Shown here in pieces: positions 1,299-9,691 of a stretch of DNA of 16,193 nt. The first letter of the stretch is position 1. Every line of letters begins with the position of its first letter. The notes beneath the pieces are model-generated. The model did not search any database and was not told the DNA's origin. It worked only from the letters and a program-made list of their open reading frames with translations. Position numbers and translations under genes: made by a program. Source of the DNA: a virus. The stretch lies in the UHGV virus genome UHGV-0197964; one strand, written 5' to 3'.

Positions 1299-1374
1299 TG
1301 GTGCTGGTTAACGGACTTGAACCGCTACCCATTCGCTTACAAGGCGACTGCTCTACCATTGGAGCTAAACCAGC
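1299..1374 (-). tRNA. tRNA-Thr (anticodon UGU)
   Basis: Manual cloverleaf: 76 nt, perfect 7-bp acceptor stem (GCUGGUU/AACCAGC), U8 A9, 4-bp D stem with GG in loop, anticodon loop CUUGUAA, T-loop UUCAAGU, discriminator A, encoded CCA. Confidence 0.8.
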
Positions 1375-1379
1375 ATATT

Positions 1380-1454
1380 TGGCGGGACAGCGTGGACTCG
1401 AACCACGATAAGAAGGTTAACAGCCTTCCGTAATGACCTTTATACGACTGACCC
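1380..1454 (-). tRNA. tRNA-Asn (anticodon GUU)-like, possibly degenerate
   Basis: 75 nt; 5-bp anticodon stem with loop CUGUUAA; perfect T arm CGUGG-UUCGAGU-CCACG; encoded CCA; but acceptor stem has one U-U mismatch and D arm is atypical. Confidence 0.5.
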
Positions 1455-5181: not shown

Positions 5182-6558
5182 TCATACGTCAGCCCCTTGT
5201 GCATATCGTCTGCCACGCGCAGCAGGTGCATTTGATGCTGTGCAAATCTGTCTGGCTTCATCCTGGTCACACGCAACAAAGTGTCCGTTGCAGAACCGCT
5301 GGTAAACCGTACCAAGTGAGCCAAAACGGTTTTTCGTCACGATGATTTCAGCAAATGGCGCGGCGCTACTGTTCTCGTCATATACAGCTTCCCGATAGAG
5401 CATGATGATTGAGTCTGCGTCCTGTTCAATGCTTCCTGAATCACGCAAATCTGCGTTTGTCGGGCGCTTGTTTGGTCGCTTCTCAACATCGCGTGAAAGC
5501 TGACTCAGGGAAATAACCGGTGTTTTCAGGTCTTTCGCCATCGCCTTCATGCTTCCGGAGATGTGAGCAATTGCGAGGTCGTTGCGGTCTGCTTTCGGCT
5601 TCTCAATCAGGCCAAGATAATCCGCCATGATGAGTGACAGGTTTGGATTTTCCTGTTTGTGCCTTTCTGCGATTGAGCGAATTTCTTCGACCGATAACCG
5701 CGAGGCATCGACTACCCATACATCCAAATCTGCAAGCTGACTCATGCCGTTAGCAACACGCGCCCAGCCTTCGTCATCCATCGATGCAGGATTTCGCAGT
5801 ACGCTAACCGACATTCTCCCGGCGTTGGCAATGCTTCGCTCTGCAATCTGCAATGCGCTCATTTCCATTGAGAAAATCAATACTCCGCGCCGGACGTCAG
5901 AACCAGGAATAACGCGGCTTGCAACGCCTTCGGCAATCTTCAGCGCCAGTTCGGTTTTCCCCATACCAGGACGAGCAGCGATTATCACCAGGTCTTCTGC
6001 GTTCATCCCTCCGGTGATAGCGTCAAGCTCTTCGATTCCGGTCTTCAGGGTATCGGACTCTTCTCCGTTCCTCAGACGCCTGTCAAGCGTGTCAGTGTAG
6101 TCGGTGATGATTTCCCCTAACCGTACAGGTTTAACCTCGTCACGGGGCTTTCTGATAGCTGAAAGACGCTTTACGAGCTCGTCCATCGCCTGACTCGATG
6201 TATCGATGGTTCCGCTCTGAATTGGTTCACGCATTTCATCCATGATTTCCAGCACCAGACGGCGGTGATAGTTATCCGCGACCATTCCGGCATATCCCTT
6301 CAGGTTTGCGGCACTCGGGCAGTTTTTGCTGGTCATCAGGATTGACGTGAAATGCTCCTCTCCGCACGCCTCGGCAACCATCAGCGCGTCGATTAGGTTT
6401 CTGTTTCGCGCCTGCTTGCGGATAACCTCGAAGGCTTTCCGGTAGAGCGGAATTGAAAACGCTTCCGGCTCCAGCGTTGCCAGAACGTCGCTGGCGGTTG
6501 GTGTTAATCCACCAATCAGCAGGCCACCGATAACGCTCGCTTCGATATCCTGTTTCAT
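5182..6558 (-). CDS. DnaB-type replicative DNA helicase (P22 gene 12-like)
   Basis: 458 aa; Walker [12 protein letters not shown] and DnaB C-terminal domain organisation; ATGA overlap with upstream initiator. Confidence 0.9.
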
Positions 6559-7502
6559 GCAATCCCCCTGTCTGCAAACTTCCCTTCCCGAACTCCCGTT
6601 AACGAGTCTTCTCTCAGCAGGTAATCAAAATCAGCCGTCCAGCCCGTGTCGTTGTCTCCGAAGTAAAACGGCTTGGCCTGATGCACAAACGCCCTGACAT
6701 ACGCCCTGAAACCGTCCACGTTTGGCGTTTTCAGTTGCGGGATGATTTTCTTCAGGCGGCGTTTGCGTTTCTCGTTGACCGCAACAGCGTGTGGCAGTCT
6801 GTCACCGACTTCGGTGTTGTAGGCGTTCAGGAAGGATTCGTAGTCGATTCGTTCTGCCTTGCGACGTTCAGGTTTAACCTGCCCATCGCCTCCCCCATTG
6901 GGGGGTAGGGGGGTATTATTTATATTCTTGTTAATACCTTCTTGTTCATGATGTGCGGTTGTTTGTGCGGCTTCATGTGCGCTTTCATGTGCGGCATGTA
7001 CGCTGAAAGCCGCGCCATTGCTGGCTTCATCATGTGCGGAATCATGTGCGGTTGTTTGTGCGGCTTCATGTGCGGGTAAATCGTCCATTTTTTGAGCATA
7101 TTCATGGTAATTTGTGATGGTTATCACACGACCTTTTTGCTTCTCTCCATCAATGGAGATCATCCCCTCTTTCACAAAAACCTGAAGCATCCGCTCAACC
7201 TGATCACGGCTTGCTGGCTTGCCATGTCTGTCGCATAACTGAAGACCTAAATCAGCTGCTGTCACAACCAGTTGACCGGGTTGCAGATGCCATTCATTAC
7301 CTTTGAAATTCGCTTTGTATGGCTTTCTGGCGGCATTCAGGAGAAGGTTTTCCCACAGGGTGCGAAGATAAACATCTTTCGCCCATGACTGTTTCAGAAT
7401 GCTCCGGTACAACGGAATGTAACCAGTTTTCTGGTTCTCCATCCTGTTGCTCCTGCGCTCGTGTGCGGCGCTGAAATCGTAGATTTTTGCTGTATTGCTC
7501 AT
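6555..7502 (-). CDS. replication initiator (O-like / replisome organizer) with His/Ala-rich repeat linker
   Basis: 315 aa; N-terminus [10 protein letters not shown] resembles lambda O start; sits immediately upstream of and coupled to the helicase; internal repeats coincide with the DNA iterons. Confidence 0.75.
6949..7074. repeat. iteron array inside the initiator gene: 31-bp perfect direct repeat (6951-6981, 7044-7074) built from ~9-bp CATGTGCGG-type units
   Basis: Counted directly: about 8-9 copies of (C/T)(A/T)TGTGCGG at ~11-12 bp spacing; flanked at 6915-6940 by a ~85% AT stretch. Confidence 0.7.
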
Positions 7503-7504
7503 AA

Positions 7505-7777
7505 CTACCTGCCTTGACGAAAGACCTTAAGAACATCGTTAAACTGACTTACGGATATGTCTTCTTTGAGAAGCTTTTCCAGAAATGCGTTTGGAATGAA
7601 CGTATATCCCTCCTCTTTTGGTAGAGACGGGAGCAACGCCCTCGCCTCAGCCTTCAGAAGCTCAGTTCTGGCAACTTTCACAAAAGAGATTTGAGTTCTT
7701 TCATCAATGGAACGAAGGAAGCGCAAACGCTTAGCTTCTTTGTGTGTATCAGGTGGATTAAAGCCTTTGTTTCGCAT
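7505..7777 (-). CDS. hypothetical protein (90 aa) immediately upstream of the initiator
   Basis: ATG at 7777 with GAGG ~10 nt upstream; no recognisable motif. Confidence 0.5.
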   Translation of the reverse strand: MRNKGFNPPDTHKEAKRLRFLRSIDERTQISFVKVARTELLKAEARALLPSLPKEEGYTFIPNAFLEKLLKEDISVSQFNDVLKVFRQGR

Positions 7778-7788
7778 ATAATTACCTC

Positions 7789-7866
7789 GTTGGATGTTGT
7801 TAAAATTCCATTTGTATTTGATCAGAACGCTCGGTCTTGCACACCGGGCGTTTTATTTTTTTATGT
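7789..7866 (+). ncRNA. oop: oop-like antisense RNA (~78 nt) with its own -10 and intrinsic terminator
   Basis: Perfect TATAAT at 7777-7782; transcript would start GUUGGAU...; terminator hairpin GCUCGGU/ACCGGGC (7 bp, one G-U) at 7829-7850 followed by a U-rich run to ~7867; resembles recalled lambda oop in length, start and 3' end. Confidence 0.5.
7802..7852 (-). repeat. unused second copy of the cII 3' end, downstream of the HNH gene
   Basis: Minus-strand frame reads RPVCKTERSDQIQMEF-stop, homologous to lambda cII C-terminus (RPAATERSEQIQMEF); shares CCGGGCGTTTT with the active cII 3' end at 8333-8345. Confidence 0.65.
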
Positions 7867-8281
7867 GCTTCCATTTTTCACCTCTGCAAATGGCAGCTAT
7901 ATAATTTGGCGTTACTCCATATTTTTTTGATAATGCCCTTGTGTTGAATAAGGGGTGTCTTGGTATATATTCACTAATGATGTTTCTTACATCATCTTCA
8001 GTTAATTTTGCCCTACCATTCCTGCTTCCAAATGCCTGCCTTTTTCTCTCCACCATGTCATTTGCGTTTTGCTGACTTGTCCCAGCACATAAATGAGAAG
8101 GTAAAATACAAGAAGGATTGTCACATGCGTGACGAATTACTAAGCCATCTATATCTTCAAGCTGGATCCCTTTTGCCACACAATAAGCAAATCTATGAGC
8201 AAATACTTTTTTCCCATTAATCCAAACCCTTCCATAACCCTTGCTGTCCTTTAAACCGCCAAATTCCAAACACGGAGTCAT
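7853..8281 (-). CDS. HNH homing-type endonuclease (HNH_3-like)
   Basis: 142 aa; GYGRVWINGKKVFAHRFAY and HACDNPSCILPSHL motifs typical of phage HNH endonucleases; visibly AT-richer than flanks; own RBS 10 nt after the cII stop. Confidence 0.85.
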   Translation of the reverse strand: MTPCLEFGGLKDSKGYGRVWINGKKVFAHRFAYCVAKGIQLEDIDGLVIRHACDNPSCILPSHLCAGTSQQNANDMVERKRQAFGSRNGRAKLTEDDVRNIISEYIPRHPLFNTRALSKKYGVTPNYIAAICRGEKWKHIKK

Positions 8282-8291
8282 AAGACCATCC

Positions 8292-8585
8292 TTAAAAATT
8301 CATGGTTAACTGATTCTCAGCGAAAATATCCGCCGGGCGTTTTTTATTGGTGAGAATCGAAGCAACTTGTCGTGCCAATCGAGCCATGTCGTCGTCAACG
8401 ACGCCCCATTCAAGAACAGCAAGCAGCATTGAGAACTTTGGAATCCAGTCCCTCTTCCACCTGCTGATCTGCGACTTATCAACTCCCACAGCTTCCGCTG
8501 TCTTCTCAGTTCCAAGCATTGCGATTTTGTTAAGCAACGCACTCTCGATTCTTAGAGCCTCGTTGCGTTTGTTTGCACGAACCAT
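8292..8585 (-). CDS. cII: transcriptional activator CII
   Basis: Internal Met of the ORF gives 97 aa, identical to recalled lambda CII through residue ~84, then a divergent 13-aa tail (ADIFAENQLTMNF). Confidence 0.95.
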   Translation of the reverse strand: MVRANKRNEALRIESALLNKIAMLGTEKTAEAVGVDKSQISRWKRDWIPKFSMLLAVLEWGVVDDDMARLARQVASILTNKKRPADIFAENQLTMNF

Positions 8586-8600
8586 ATGTAAGTATTTCCT
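8560..8600 (+). promoter_or_regulatory. pRE-like promoter with CII site TTGC-N6-TTGC
   Basis: TTGCgtttgtTTGC at 8563-8576 on plus strand overlapping the cII start, oriented toward cro/cI as in lambda. Confidence 0.6.
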
Positions 8601-8664
8601 TAGATAACAATTGATTGAATGCATGCAAATAAATGCATACACCATAGGTGTGGTTTAATTTGAT

Positions 8665-8696
8665 GCCCTTTTTCAGGGCTGGGATGTGTAAGAGCT
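8665..8696 (-). promoter_or_regulatory. nutR (boxA-like AGCTCTTA; boxB GCCCTGAAAAAGGGC)
   Basis: BoxB hairpin at 8665-8679 identical to lambda nutR boxB; boxA-like 8689-8696 with one mismatch. Confidence 0.75.
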
Positions 8697-8704
8697 GGAA
8701 TGTC

Positions 8705-8920
8705 TTAAGCGGCTTTGTGTTCCGGCGGGAACACGTCATCAAGACTGACTTTTGCGCCTAACTTGTTTAGGCACTCAACAAGAGCACGGCATGTTTTAAG
8801 GTCTGGGAAGCGACGACCAGATTCCCAATGTCCGATAGCTCCCTGTGTGCATCCAACCGCCTTAGCAAGTGTTGTTTGAGAGATATTCAGTGACTCTCGA
8901 TATTTACGTAGGTTGCTCAT
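8705..8920 (-). CDS. cro: Cro-type repressor (HTH, non-lambda specificity)
   Basis: Internal Met of the 151-aa ORF gives 71 aa with HTH ISQTTLAKAVGCTQGAIGHWESG; GGAGG 4-5 nt upstream; divergent from cI across the operator region. Confidence 0.8.
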   Translation of the reverse strand: MSNLRKYRESLNISQTTLAKAVGCTQGAIGHWESGRRFPDLKTCRALVECLNKLGAKVSLDDVFPPEHKAA

Positions 8921-9037
8921 ATGCCCTCCATAGTAACCATGAGGCAATAATACGATATGTACTTTTGGAATGCAAACAAAAAATACATCTTGTGCATGGA
9001 TGGTTTTAGTACAGAGCGTAATAATAAGGATATGAAA
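8921..9037. promoter_or_regulatory. right operator region (OR / pR / pRM) with candidate operators
   Basis: Divergent cro and cI starts ~115 bp apart; pR candidate -35 TTGCAT and -10 TATTAT (17-bp spacer) on minus strand; site at 8949-8963 matches the OL palindrome 13/15; weaker sites at 8982-8996 and 9008-9022. Confidence 0.6.
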
Positions 9038-9691
9038 ATGAAATGGTATGAACTGGCTAGATCCAGAATGAAAGAGCTCGGCATAACTCAAGAGAAGTTG
9101 GCTGAAGAGCTTGGTATGACGCAGGGTGGAATTGGTCACTGGTTGCGCGGATCTCGTCATCCATCTCTTGACGAGATTGGTGTGGTGTTTAAATACCTTG
9201 GTATTGATAACGTCTCATTCAACCACGACGGTACATTTTCACCTGTTGGCGAATACTCATCTTCCCCCGTTAAAAAACAATATGAGTACCCTGTTTTTTC
9301 TCATGTTCAGGCCGGGATGTTCTCGCCTGAGCTTAGAACCTTTACCAAAGGTGATGCGGAGAGATGGGTCAGCACAACCAAAAAAGCCAGTGATTGTGCG
9401 TTTTGGCTTGAAGTTGAAGGTAATTCCATGACCGCACCAACAGGATCCAAGCCAAGCTTTCCTGACGGGATGTTAATTCTCGTTGACCCTGAGCAGGCTG
9501 TTGAGCCAGGTGATTTCTGCATAGCCAGACTTGGTGGTGACGAGTTTACCTTCAAGAAACTGATCAGGGATAGCGGTCAGGTGTTCCTACAGCCACTAAA
9601 CCCGCAATATCCAATGATTCCATGCAATGATAGCTGTTCCGTAGTAGGGAAAGTTATCGCCAGCCAGTGGCCTGAAGAGACATTTAGTTAA
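9038..9691 (+). CDS. cI: CI repressor, chimeric: heterologous N-terminal HTH domain fused to lambda-type C-terminal cleavage/dimerisation domain
   Basis: From about [21 protein letters not shown] to the end it is near-identical to recalled lambda CI; N-terminal ~90 aa differ; start ATG 9038 chosen over 9032 on SD spacing. Confidence 0.9.

Follow-up and report, generated by a model that had tools for sequence, protein, structure and literature searches.

A probable HNH homing-endonuclease cassette that brings a substitute cII tail to the cII/oop overlap of lambdoid phages

Results

A 489-bp insert that carries an HNH endonuclease gene separates the body of cII from its native 3' end in the 16,193-nt stretch of viral DNA analysed here (UHGV-0197964; the window). 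The insert is probably a free-standing HNH homing-endonuclease cassette located at the overlap of cII and the antisense oop gene of lambdoid phages, for which DNA cleavage and homing would be the expected activities. The cassette behaves as a site-specific mobile unit: prophages that are unrelated in other respects carry it at one and the same site, and empty copies of that site are common.

Boundaries of the insert and the empty site

When the window was aligned with the insert-free phages JEP4 and CUS-3 and with Stx2a phages, the insert (7844-8332, minus strand) appeared as one clean gap between identical flanks. Because an 11-nt direct repeat, AAAACGCCCGG, bounds the insert on both sides, this placement is one of 12 equivalent registers. 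The first-pass annotation of this DNA had reported an 11-mer shared by 7844-7854 and 8333-8343; CCGGGCGTTTT is indeed present at both positions with a spacing of 489 nt, and it is the sole direct-repeat family in 7700-8450. The left copy of AAAACGCCCGG (8333-8343, minus strand) is an orphan half-stem of the oop terminator with an A-run and forms no hairpin (plus strand 8305-8352, -6.4 kcal/mol, z +0.5), and the right copy (7844-7854, minus strand), which shares 2 nt with the HNH stop codon, provides the 3' half-stem of this terminator. That the insertion is more than chance is confirmed by the alignment to insert-free relatives rather than by the 11-mer; the boundary in JEP4 and the Stx2a phages falls at exactly the positions that had been predicted.

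In the alignment, the empty site of JEP4 and the Stx2a phages reads CTCACCAATAAAAAACGCCCGG/TGTGCAAGACCGAGCG. The exact 102-nt empty site is also present in other E. coli genomes, including S51 and APEC O2-211, and a search of the 16-kb window with up to 3 mismatches allowed found no contiguous 36-nt empty site there. Presence and absence of the insert are thus polymorphic at one precise site, both between the window and JEP4/CUS-3 and between M160133 and a Stx2a phage. The conserved left arm, CTCACCAATAAAAAACGCCCGG (22 nt; 8333-8354, minus strand), is common to two cII alleles that are otherwise about 50% divergent: in alignments of the lambda-type and Stx2a-type cII contexts, identity starts exactly at CTCACC.

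A repeat search of the cassette found no terminal inverted repeats. The reading of the cassette as a transposon was rejected, as it has neither such repeats nor a transposase. An imperfect inverted repeat lies at the left junction (8312-8334 / 8336-8358), with a fold no better than those of shuffled sequences (z about -1.4). No obvious counterpart was seen by eye at the left junctions of L008 and L013, two diverged relatives of the cassette, and the repeat is probably due to chance.

The cII tail in use and the displaced native tail

The cII gene of the window (8292-8585, minus strand; 97 aa; Pfam Phage_CII, E=2.7e-45) has a hybrid 3' end. Its body is about 99% identical to the cII of JEP4 and CUS-3 as far as ...KKRP, where the divergent tail already described in the first pass begins, with ADIFAENQLTMNF and a stop codon (8292-8333, minus strand). 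Among 5426 genomes the DNA of this tail was found only in the 6 that bear the cassette, and never without the HNH gene. After the HNH stop, at 7800-7850 (minus strand), the native cII tail RPVCKTERSDQIQMEF is still present but unjoined from cII; it reads (K)RPVCKTERSDQIQMEF directly after the HNH stop and ends with its own stop codon at 7800-7802. This second tail had been noticed before at 7802-7852, a placement wrong by 2 nt only, and its sequence matches exactly the one that JEP4 and the Stx2a phages use as their cII tail. Two copies of the cII tail had been proposed to flank the cassette. The 11-mer is the only part truly duplicated: the tail in use is a substitute rather than a duplicate of the native tail, with which it shares 25 of 46 nucleotides in an optimised DNA alignment.

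The substitute tail keeps Q(-6), L(-5), M(-3) and F(-1), like all native tails, and a C-terminal Q-[I/L]-x-[M/I]-x-F was found in 4/4 substitute tails and 7/7 native tails. Mutant phenotypes are known for Gln(-6) and Met(-3) of lambda CII (PMC5869508). Since the cassette brings its own substitute C-terminus, cII stays open and the terminal Q-[I/L]-x-[M/I]-x-F is kept.

The oop terminator and the antisense RNA

A terminator scan called an intact oop-type (tO) intrinsic terminator on the plus strand at 7824-7862, with a 12-pair stem at 7824-7854 and a U-tract at 7851-7862. Its fold has an energy of -16.7 kcal/mol (z -4.56), and none of 200 shuffled sequences was as stable. The terminator is intact at the downstream repeat copy only, where it encloses the surviving native tail, and its U-tract comes from the HNH codons ...IKK-stop. 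The half-stem and A-run at the far end of the cassette pair with the native half, and the oop terminator is therefore rebuilt.

An oop-like antisense RNA would extend over 7789-7862 (plus strand). Its 5' end, which in lambda is GUUGAUAG, was placed by similarity, and the RNA can be aligned with the oop ncRNA annotated in phage 434. Rfam at the gathering threshold returned only two tRNAs and no oop match. A TATAAT at 7777-7782 (plus strand), read from the sequence, is a putative -10 element of pO. It overlaps the start codon of the next gene and matches the position of a CATAAT upstream of the annotated 434 oop; its -35 element is too weak for it to have been called by a consensus promoter scan. 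The next gene, orf90 (7505-7777, minus strand; PHROG 2519, unknown function, E=1.9e-57), is the first replication-module gene downstream of the cassette and also occurs in JEP4, as an annotated hypothetical gene.

In lambda, about 52 nt of oop are complementary to the coding 3' end of cII (PMC5869508). In the window, the complementarity of oop is to the displaced remnant at 7800-7850, and the cII tail in use (8292-8333), about 490 nt away, offers the orphan half-stem only. As a side effect of the insertion, the oop RNA would pair with the region after the HNH gene and no longer with the cII tail in use. The first pass had missed that the oop terminator is rebuilt and that the cII tail in use would no longer be the antisense target of oop.

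The HNH nuclease

The nuclease gene (7853-8281, minus strand) starts 10 nt after cII. The spacer (8282-8291, minus strand) contains TAAGGATGG, with a Shine-Dalgarno-like AAGGA, read from the sequence, that overlaps the cII stop (TAAGGATGGTCTTATG). As had been noted in the first pass, the gene is AT-rich: the GC content is 0.36-0.41 here, against 0.44-0.50 in the flanks. A scan of the minus strand over 7400-8800 found no sigma-70-like promoter, and promoter-like sites antisense to the HNH gene (3) were about as frequent as expected from shuffles (2.4).

The product is a 142-aa HNH_3 (His-Me finger) endonuclease with a C-terminal helical DNA-binding-like domain. It scored 28.9 bits against the HNH_3 profile (cut-off 24.8; residues 27-73) and matched PHROG 59 'HNH endonuclease' with E=3e-28. 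Residues H51, C53, D54, N55, C58, H63 and N72 are invariant in 19 homologues, down to 36% identity. A sequence search of PDB chains gave nothing meaningful for this protein, and a fold search was needed. The AF2 model (pLDDT 90.8) has I-HmuI (1u3e) as its best PDB match, with a probability of 0.99 and a Foldseek E of 7e-3, followed by I-PpoI with E 0.14; these E-values are modest, and the rmsd to I-HmuI is large because the protein is elongated. The profile score, the invariant motif residues and the I-HmuI match together bear out the HNH fold that had been assigned from the open reading frame. PADLOC returned no defence matches, and a comparison with NCBIfam produced no hits of any kind. The nearest homologues in isolated phages are free-standing HNH genes of T7-like phages, some of which are annotated as homing endonucleases. 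The protein is a candidate site-specific nuclease whose natural target is defined.

Distribution and relatives of the cassette

Twelve E. coli contexts contain the cassette with at least 99% identity. It was found in 6 of 5426 complete E. coli genomes, and the 102-nt probe for the JEP4-type empty site in 378, proportions that fit a sporadic selfish element; among 50,697 records, no isolated phage contained it. In the ten contexts with an identical protein, the gene always follows a Phage_CII gene, in combination with at least five different repressor regions and at least five different replication modules. In two of the contexts (L015 and L019), a 551-bp island of 99.1% identity is the sole similarity to the window within ±3 kb. 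The alignments among cassette contexts break on the left exactly at CTCACC and at variable positions on the right. Many carriers are 100% identical over 6.4 kb, and part of the abundance of the cassette is therefore clonal.

Four diverged relatives, at 83, 71, 63 and 57% identity, are also located after cII. In the three intact ones (L008, L013 and L025), each cassette comes with a substitute tail, a displaced native tail and a terminator of its own, and L014 has an in-frame stop. Between cassette lineages, synonymous sites are saturated (pS 0.78-0.92), with pN of 0.10-0.26. Near-identical cassettes in unrelated prophages, together with diverged relatives at the same site, support the proposal made in the first pass that this is the footprint of a homing endonuclease that preserved a cII reading frame. 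None of the 77 homologues in IMG/VR with up to 49% identity has a cII neighbour; species-representative genomes yielded relatives of up to 49% identity only and are uninformative on the clade at the cII site. The lambda-type loop (CGGCAA) was not observed at any occupied site, which could reflect target specificity or linkage only.

We also considered a -1 frameshift, at A-AAA-AAA-TAA, by which the native cII tail would become fused to the nuclease. The reading frame fits in the window, L008 and L013 but not in L025, where the remnant lies in the nuclease's own frame; the frame relation is thus not conserved, and the idea was dropped.

Discussion

How the cassette may spread

If the cassette is a homing element, as we consider probable, the nuclease would be co-transcribed with cII from pR upon infection or induction and would be silent in the lysogen. 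The nuclease may then nick or cut a second lambdoid genome, co-infecting or co-resident, at its uninterrupted cII/oop site; a fragment with CTCACCAATAAAAAACGCCCGGTGTGCAAGACCGAGCG, or the lambda-type variant of it, is the candidate target of the 142-aa protein. Recombinational repair off the cassette-bearing genome would copy the cassette into the broken site, with short conserved arms of 22 nt on the left and about 33-49 nt on the right possibly sufficing for the exchange. The carrier itself is expected to be immune, because the contiguous target is gone from it. Flanking polymorphism among the cassette contexts is compatible with co-conversion, though not diagnostic of it.

The arms form a conserved mosaic boundary of lambdoid phages, and ordinary or Red/Erf-type recombination could therefore move the cassette without any nuclease action. 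An HNH module might have been inserted once and then shuffled by general or phage recombination at the boundary of the cII tail and oop, with the nuclease serving another purpose, such as harm to competing phages or host DNA, and no copying of itself. Phages that lack the insert and have unrelated cII bodies also possess these arms in conserved form, as expected of a natural mosaic joint, the prophage encodes a Rad52-type recombinase (EC11 annotation), and occupancy is low. We nevertheless regard such passive carriage as unlikely. A left arm of 22 nt is very short for unstimulated recombination, and, under purifying selection, an entire clade has not left this one site even as its synonymous sites became saturated. 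More distant homologues never adjoin cII. PADLOC also gave no defence matches, and the nearest relatives are free-standing nuclease genes of lytic phages.

It is less probable still that the arrangement of cII, substitute tail and HNH gene is ancestral and is now being lost without current invasion, the JEP4-type empty alleles being deletions between the 11-nt repeats. Recombination between the two AAAACGCCCGG copies would indeed regenerate the exact JEP4-type empty site, the nuclease family is old, and L014 looks degenerate because of its in-frame stop. However, identity of at least 99% across backgrounds without other common DNA points to recent spread rather than to relict retention, and the lambda-type empty sites, which have a different loop that is 3 nt shorter, cannot be products of such a deletion. 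Since both loss and gain are expected in the life cycle of a homing endonuclease, this reading is more a complement of homing than a rival to it. A packaging-associated HNH protein that works with terminase in cos phages, like gp74 of HK97, is effectively ruled out: the likeness goes no further than a small phage HNH protein, and the gene belongs to the early-right operon, with cII and the replication genes rather than terminase as neighbours, has the two-domain HNH_3/I-HmuI-type architecture, and is absent from the near-identical JEP4 and CUS-3, which are complete isolated phages and viable.

Comparison with known mobile elements

The closest known architecture is that of the fungal mitochondrial mobile endonuclease ORFs (mORFs) that replace the C-terminus of a gene. 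Such mORFs have been described for atp6 of Allomyces macrogynus, for atp6, atp9, cox2 and nad3 of Glomus, and also for atp9 of Rhizopus and cox2 of Mortierella (PMC3630166). As in those cases, the body of the host gene is fused in frame to a C-terminus brought by the element and is followed by the endonuclease ORF and then by the displaced native end, and the displaced end is nearer to the sequences of relatives than the end in use. Unlike the fungal mORFs, which encode LAGLIDADG or GIY-YIG enzymes in the mitochondrion, the cassette encodes an HNH nuclease in a temperate bacteriophage, as a separate ORF with its own ribosome-binding site, and its target, the tail of a regulatory gene, also forms the terminator of an antisense RNA, a terminator that the element rebuilds. 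With an HNH nuclease in a lambdoid prophage, the cassette thus has the design of a fungal mORF but does not belong to the fungal mORF family.

In T-even phages, the free-standing homing endonucleases Seg and Mob (e.g. T4 mobE) are independent of introns and inteins, have a patchy distribution and spread by break repair with co-conversion of the flanks. The cassette resembles them in that a nuclease gene is inserted among conserved phage genes, at their ends or in the gaps between them. To our knowledge, seg and mob genes are intergenic and supply no substitute gene end. They belong to lytic phages, and several have proved active in biochemical and genetic work, whereas the cII cassette is found in temperate prophages and its activity is predicted. 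I-HmuI is an intron-encoded HNH nicking endonuclease of the Bacillus phage SPO1 (PDB 1u3e). The 142-aa protein resembles it over the full model (149 aligned columns), including the N-terminal sheet, the His-Me finger and the C-terminal helical DNA-binding region, but with only 17% sequence identity and without the intron. The closest sequence relatives among isolated phages, the HNH genes of T7-like phages such as 7.7C of Citrobacter phage CR44b (a predicted homing endonuclease), share 42-47% identity over the full length as well as size and domain layout. They differ in belonging to lytic phages, in having sites near genes for internal virion protein, DNA polymerase or helicase, and in replacing no gene end.

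Some integrase-type elements reconstitute the 3' end of the gene into which they insert; phage 21 and e14 do so in icd, and other prophages do so in tRNA or tmRNA genes. The cassette likewise carries in a replacement 3' end, leaves the target gene functional and displaces the original end. Those elements use site-specific recombinases and att sites, however, and the cassette has no integrase, att structure or terminal inverted repeats. In the literature covered, which leaves out most subscription journals, we found no description of an HNH gene at the cII/oop site of lambda-like phages.

Implications

Most work on homing endonucleases has dealt with lytic phages and organelles, and the cassette described here is located in the decision core of lambda-like temperate phages. 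One 489-bp cassette mends both of the overlapping genes that it splits, by supplying a protein tail and an antisense-RNA terminator, and it illustrates in compact natural form how a selfish element can be near-neutral at a dense, doubly coded site. The cassette also provides a testable handle on two classical questions, namely which features the CII C-terminal tail requires for its function and whether oop must pair with the coding end of cII. If the nuclease is active, related prophages would have in it a weapon against one another, and it would promote mosaicism at the boundary of immunity and replication, including in Stx-phage backgrounds.

A further proposal, which we put forward tentatively and consider rather doubtful, is that an HNH homing clade has long resided at the lambdoid cII/oop overlap and does more than hitch-hike there. 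If so, the lysis-lysogeny set-point of carrier phages would be shifted, and recurrent attack on the site could help to explain why so many versions of the tO stem and the cII tail exist while the structure and the terminal motif remain constant.

Gene order around cII

The window spans the early-region genes of a P22-like lambdoid prophage in reverse orientation, with genes called from profile matches and from the annotation of an identical E. coli EC11 prophage. The repressor (8957-9691, plus strand) is followed by a cro-like gene and then, on the minus strand, by cII (8292-8585; Phage_CII, E=2.7e-45), a 142-aa ORF with a Pfam HNH_3 match (7853-8281), orf90 (7505-7777), an O-type initiator (6555-7502) and a DnaB-type helicase (5182-6558). 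Across 6.4 kb, the window is matched at 100% identity by prophages of three E. coli assemblies, MS14385 among them. The O-type gene contains 12-nt tandem repeats (6964-7075) encoding a repetitive His/Ala-rich stretch; the lambda ori sits inside O, and by analogy these repeats may be origin iterons. Adjacent tRNA genes for Thr (TGT) and Asn (GTT) lie at 1299-1454 (minus strand), and the same pair in the EC11 prophage comes shortly after the Q antiterminator gene.

A 489-bp insertion in the 3' end of cII

The first-pass annotation described an HNH gene placed in the cII 3' end between two copies of the cII tail. Indeed, cII has a divergent end (C-terminus ...LTNKKRP-ADIFAENQLTMNF-stop), and 10 nt later, past TAAGGATGGTCTT, follows the compact, AT-rich HNH gene (HNH_3, 28.9 bits versus a cut-off of 24.8), with a GC content of 36-41% across the ORF versus 44-50% in the flanks. 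The second cII tail after the HNH stop is present on the minus strand as K-RPVCKTERSDQIQMEF-stop, at 7800-7850 (stop 7800-7802), 2 bases from the positions first assigned to it. The repeat CCGGGCGTTTT, found at 7844-7854 and 8333-8343 with a spacing of 489 nt, is the sole direct-repeat family in the region. Relatives without the HNH gene place the insert boundary here as predicted, since the alignment has one clean gap with 489 extra bases in the window: the empty site reads CTCACCAATAAAAAACGCCCGG followed directly by TGTGCAAGACCGAGCGTTCTGATC..., and the extra bases lie between two copies of AAAACGCCCGG. Thus, the cassette is an insertion relative to insert-free relatives.

None of the 50,697 phage records searched contained the whole arrangement. 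JEP4, CUS-3, HF4s and Gally gave two-piece matches covering both flanks, and many Stx2a phages matched the right flank as far as position 7854. The displaced tail of the window is exactly the tail in use in JEP4 and the Stx2a phages, and that of CUS-3 is a lambda-type variant, 3 nt shorter, with the loop CGGCAA. The substitute-tail DNA occurred in 6 of 5426 complete E. coli genomes, each time with the HNH gene. A 102-nt probe of the JEP4-type empty site matched 378 genomes at 80% coverage or more, including cassette-bearing genomes matched in two pieces, and strains S51 and APEC O2-211 had exact matches. The left junction lies at the centre of an imperfect inverted repeat (8312-8358; two 23-nt arms with 74% complementarity and a 1-nt gap), so the substitute tail is in part the complement of the cII sequence immediately upstream; the folding of this repeat did not exceed that of shuffles (z about -1.4). 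The left junctions inspected in two diverged relatives (loci L008 and L013) had no obvious counterpart.

The oop terminator and the CII tail

In lambda, the final 52 nt of oop overlap the cII end, and oop terminates at the tO hairpin (PMC5869508). The window plus strand at 7765-7870 aligns to the annotated oop RNA of phage 434, and a -10-like TATAAT (7777-7782) within this alignment overlaps the start codon of the next gene. The insertion point is inside the tO hairpin. The left half-stem and A-run (AAAACGCCCGG) are still joined to the cII body, where reading continues into the substitute tail (8292-8333). At the insert's other end is a second copy of both, which shares bases with the HNH stop codon and forms a stem with the native right half. 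This gives an intact 12-pair terminator at 7824-7854 with UUUUAUUUUUUU after it (-16.7 kcal/mol, z -4.56; 0 of 200 shuffles as stable), and the repeat copy at 8333-8343 formed no hairpin (fold z +0.5). Because the insert brings a substitute tail and a second half-stem, cII stays open and the oop terminator is kept. The oop complementarity is now predicted to fall after the HNH gene, away from the tail that cII uses.

The terminal motif Q-[I/L]-x-[M/I]-x-F was present in 4 of 4 substitute tails and 7 of 7 native or displaced tails, with little else conserved. In lambda CII, mutations at Gln(-6) and Met(-3) give phenotypes (PMC5869508), and pE is still activated by a CII that lacks the final 10 residues (PMC5869508, citing Kobiler 2002). 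The cassette thus swaps most of the CII degradation region and retains the residues with known effects; the substitute tails do not appear to be arbitrary. The tail/tO segment was seen in many versions (strain 2014C-3061 and five other loci, L008, L013, L025, L036 and L037), with stems CGCCCGG/CCGAGCG, CGCTCGGT/ACCGAGCG, ATCCCCGAG/CTCAGGGAT, AACCCTTGG/CCAAGGGTT and TCCCCGG/CCGGGGA, and every version listed retains the hairpin and the terminal motif.

The HNH protein and its expression

The motif residues H51, C53, D54, N55, C58, H63 and N72 did not vary in 19 homologues. The AlphaFold model of the protein was of high confidence (pLDDT 90.8). Among solved structures it aligned best, over its full length, to I-HmuI, an HNH homing endonuclease (probability 0.99, E 7e-3), and next best to I-PpoI. 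Within isolated phages, the closest relatives come from T7-like phages: free-standing HNH genes with 42-47% identity, some of which carry a homing-endonuclease annotation. The protein already has the RefSeq label 'HNH endonuclease', and no defence-system model matched it.

Since no promoter-like site was found on the HNH strand within 7400-8800 and the HNH Shine-Dalgarno sequence overlaps the cII stop codon, HNH is likely co-expressed with cII from pR. Antisense to the HNH 3' end is a good sigma-70-like match, TTCACC-17-TATAAT (10/12; 7877-7905, plus strand); such antisense sites were regionally no more numerous than in shuffles, and the match may reflect mere AT-richness. A 24-codon mini-ORF, MEAHKKIKRPVCKTERSDQIQMEF (7800-7874, minus strand), overlaps the HNH 3' end in a different frame, with its ATG from the conserved ...GEKW... 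codons and a preceding GAGGTG. It would encode the native C-terminal 16-17 residues of CII as a free peptide; equivalents are present in L008 (ATG) and L013 (GTG) and absent from L025, and it is probably a by-product of the nuclease coding sequence.

The same cassette in different backgrounds

The exact HNH protein was found in 949 blocks of the assembly collection, and a Phage_CII gene precedes it in 10 of the 10 distinct contexts listed. These contexts have at least 5 different repressor/cro regions and at least 5 different replication modules (lambda O-P; orf90-O-DnaB; a 53-aa ORF with a DnaB-like helicase; an HTH_36/primase set; one other). Twelve cassette copies differ by at most 1-2 bases; their left flanks change between two cII alleles (about 50% identity) precisely at CTCACC, and on the right divergence begins at variable points. 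At two loci (L015 and L019), nothing within ±3 kb was detectably similar to the window except a 551-bp island of 99.1% identity, which begins 73 nt ahead of the HNH start and extends 49 nt past its stop. These comparisons provide evidence for a site-specific mobile unit. Strain 2014C-3061 has a near-identical background without the cassette and with a different tail/terminator module, so this segment of about 75 nt itself seems to behave as a small mosaic module. Passive shuffling of the cassette at such a natural mosaic joint would be the main competing explanation; we consider it unlikely.

Diverged relatives at the cII site

HNH relatives with 83% (L008, L009), 71% (L013), 63% (L025, whose short contig includes no more of the upstream gene than its final 52 codons) and 57% (L014) identity lie directly 3' of a cII gene. 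The intact lineages have their own substitute tails (GNAKAHGDQISMNF, ADNDSSHQINIEF, LDVKNTINQISMDF), and each has a native-like tail and an oop-type terminator immediately past the nuclease stop, with stem sequences that vary and pairing that is retained. In a Salmonella P22-like phage that is related to the L013 lineage and lacks the insert, the native tail is AATERSEQLTIDF; identity between this phage and L013 stops after CCCGGCGG, the same point where lambda-type sequence and the left junction of the window part. Between lineages, pS was 0.78-0.92 (synonymous sites saturated) and pN 0.10-0.26, which argues that the nuclease is under purifying selection and that its association with the cII site is old. 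In L014 (1080-1481 and downstream), the coding sequence is broken by an in-frame TAG, and the conserved C-terminal motif resumes beyond it (...GVY-stop-ATISKIIRGKNWKRR); this copy at the same cII site is probably in decay. In IMG/VR, only the three 100%-identical copies had a cII neighbour, and none of 77 homologues at 49% identity or less did.

Other nuclease-type genes were seen nearby: a T5orf172/MUG113 (GIY-YIG-like) ORF directly after the HNH gene and remnant tail in L013 (4516-5121), a NUMOD4+HNH_3 ORF between replication genes in another locus (L016, 4550-5044), and an additional HNH_3 ORF after ninB in L015 (from 6129). For nuclease-type genes, the cII-to-replication stretch seems to be a hotspot.

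Proposed mechanism and known systems

The clean insertion, the HNH protein and the recurrence of one site in unrelated backgrounds support the first-pass interpretation, and a free-standing homing endonuclease cassette is the best reading and the most likely mechanism on these sequence comparisons. Synthesis of the nuclease would come early after infection or induction, and the enzyme would cut the uninterrupted cII/oop sites of related genomes; repair templated by the carrier genome would copy the cassette into the cut site, and the carrier would be protected because its contiguous site is gone. That the cassette is instead an old resident, now being lost via deletion between the 11-nt repeats, seems very improbable; such a deletion would regenerate the JEP4-type site exactly, and loss of this kind would also fit a homing life cycle. 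The gene position and the viable relatives without the gene exclude a packaging HNH.

To our knowledge, the Seg/Mob endonucleases of T-even phages do not replace gene ends. The proposed working of the cII cassette resembles that of these free-standing enzymes (PMC2790892, PMC2988022). A literature search, with most subscription journals outside its reach, found no paper on an HNH gene at cII/oop. The same design of host gene body, substitute C-terminus, endonuclease ORF and displaced native C-terminus is known from mobile endonuclease ORFs of fungal mitochondria, first in Allomyces atp6 and later in Glomus atp6, atp9, cox2 and nad3 (PMC3630166). The cII cassette differs from these in nuclease family, in host and in having a separate ORF and, unlike them, also restores the terminator of an overlapping antisense RNA.
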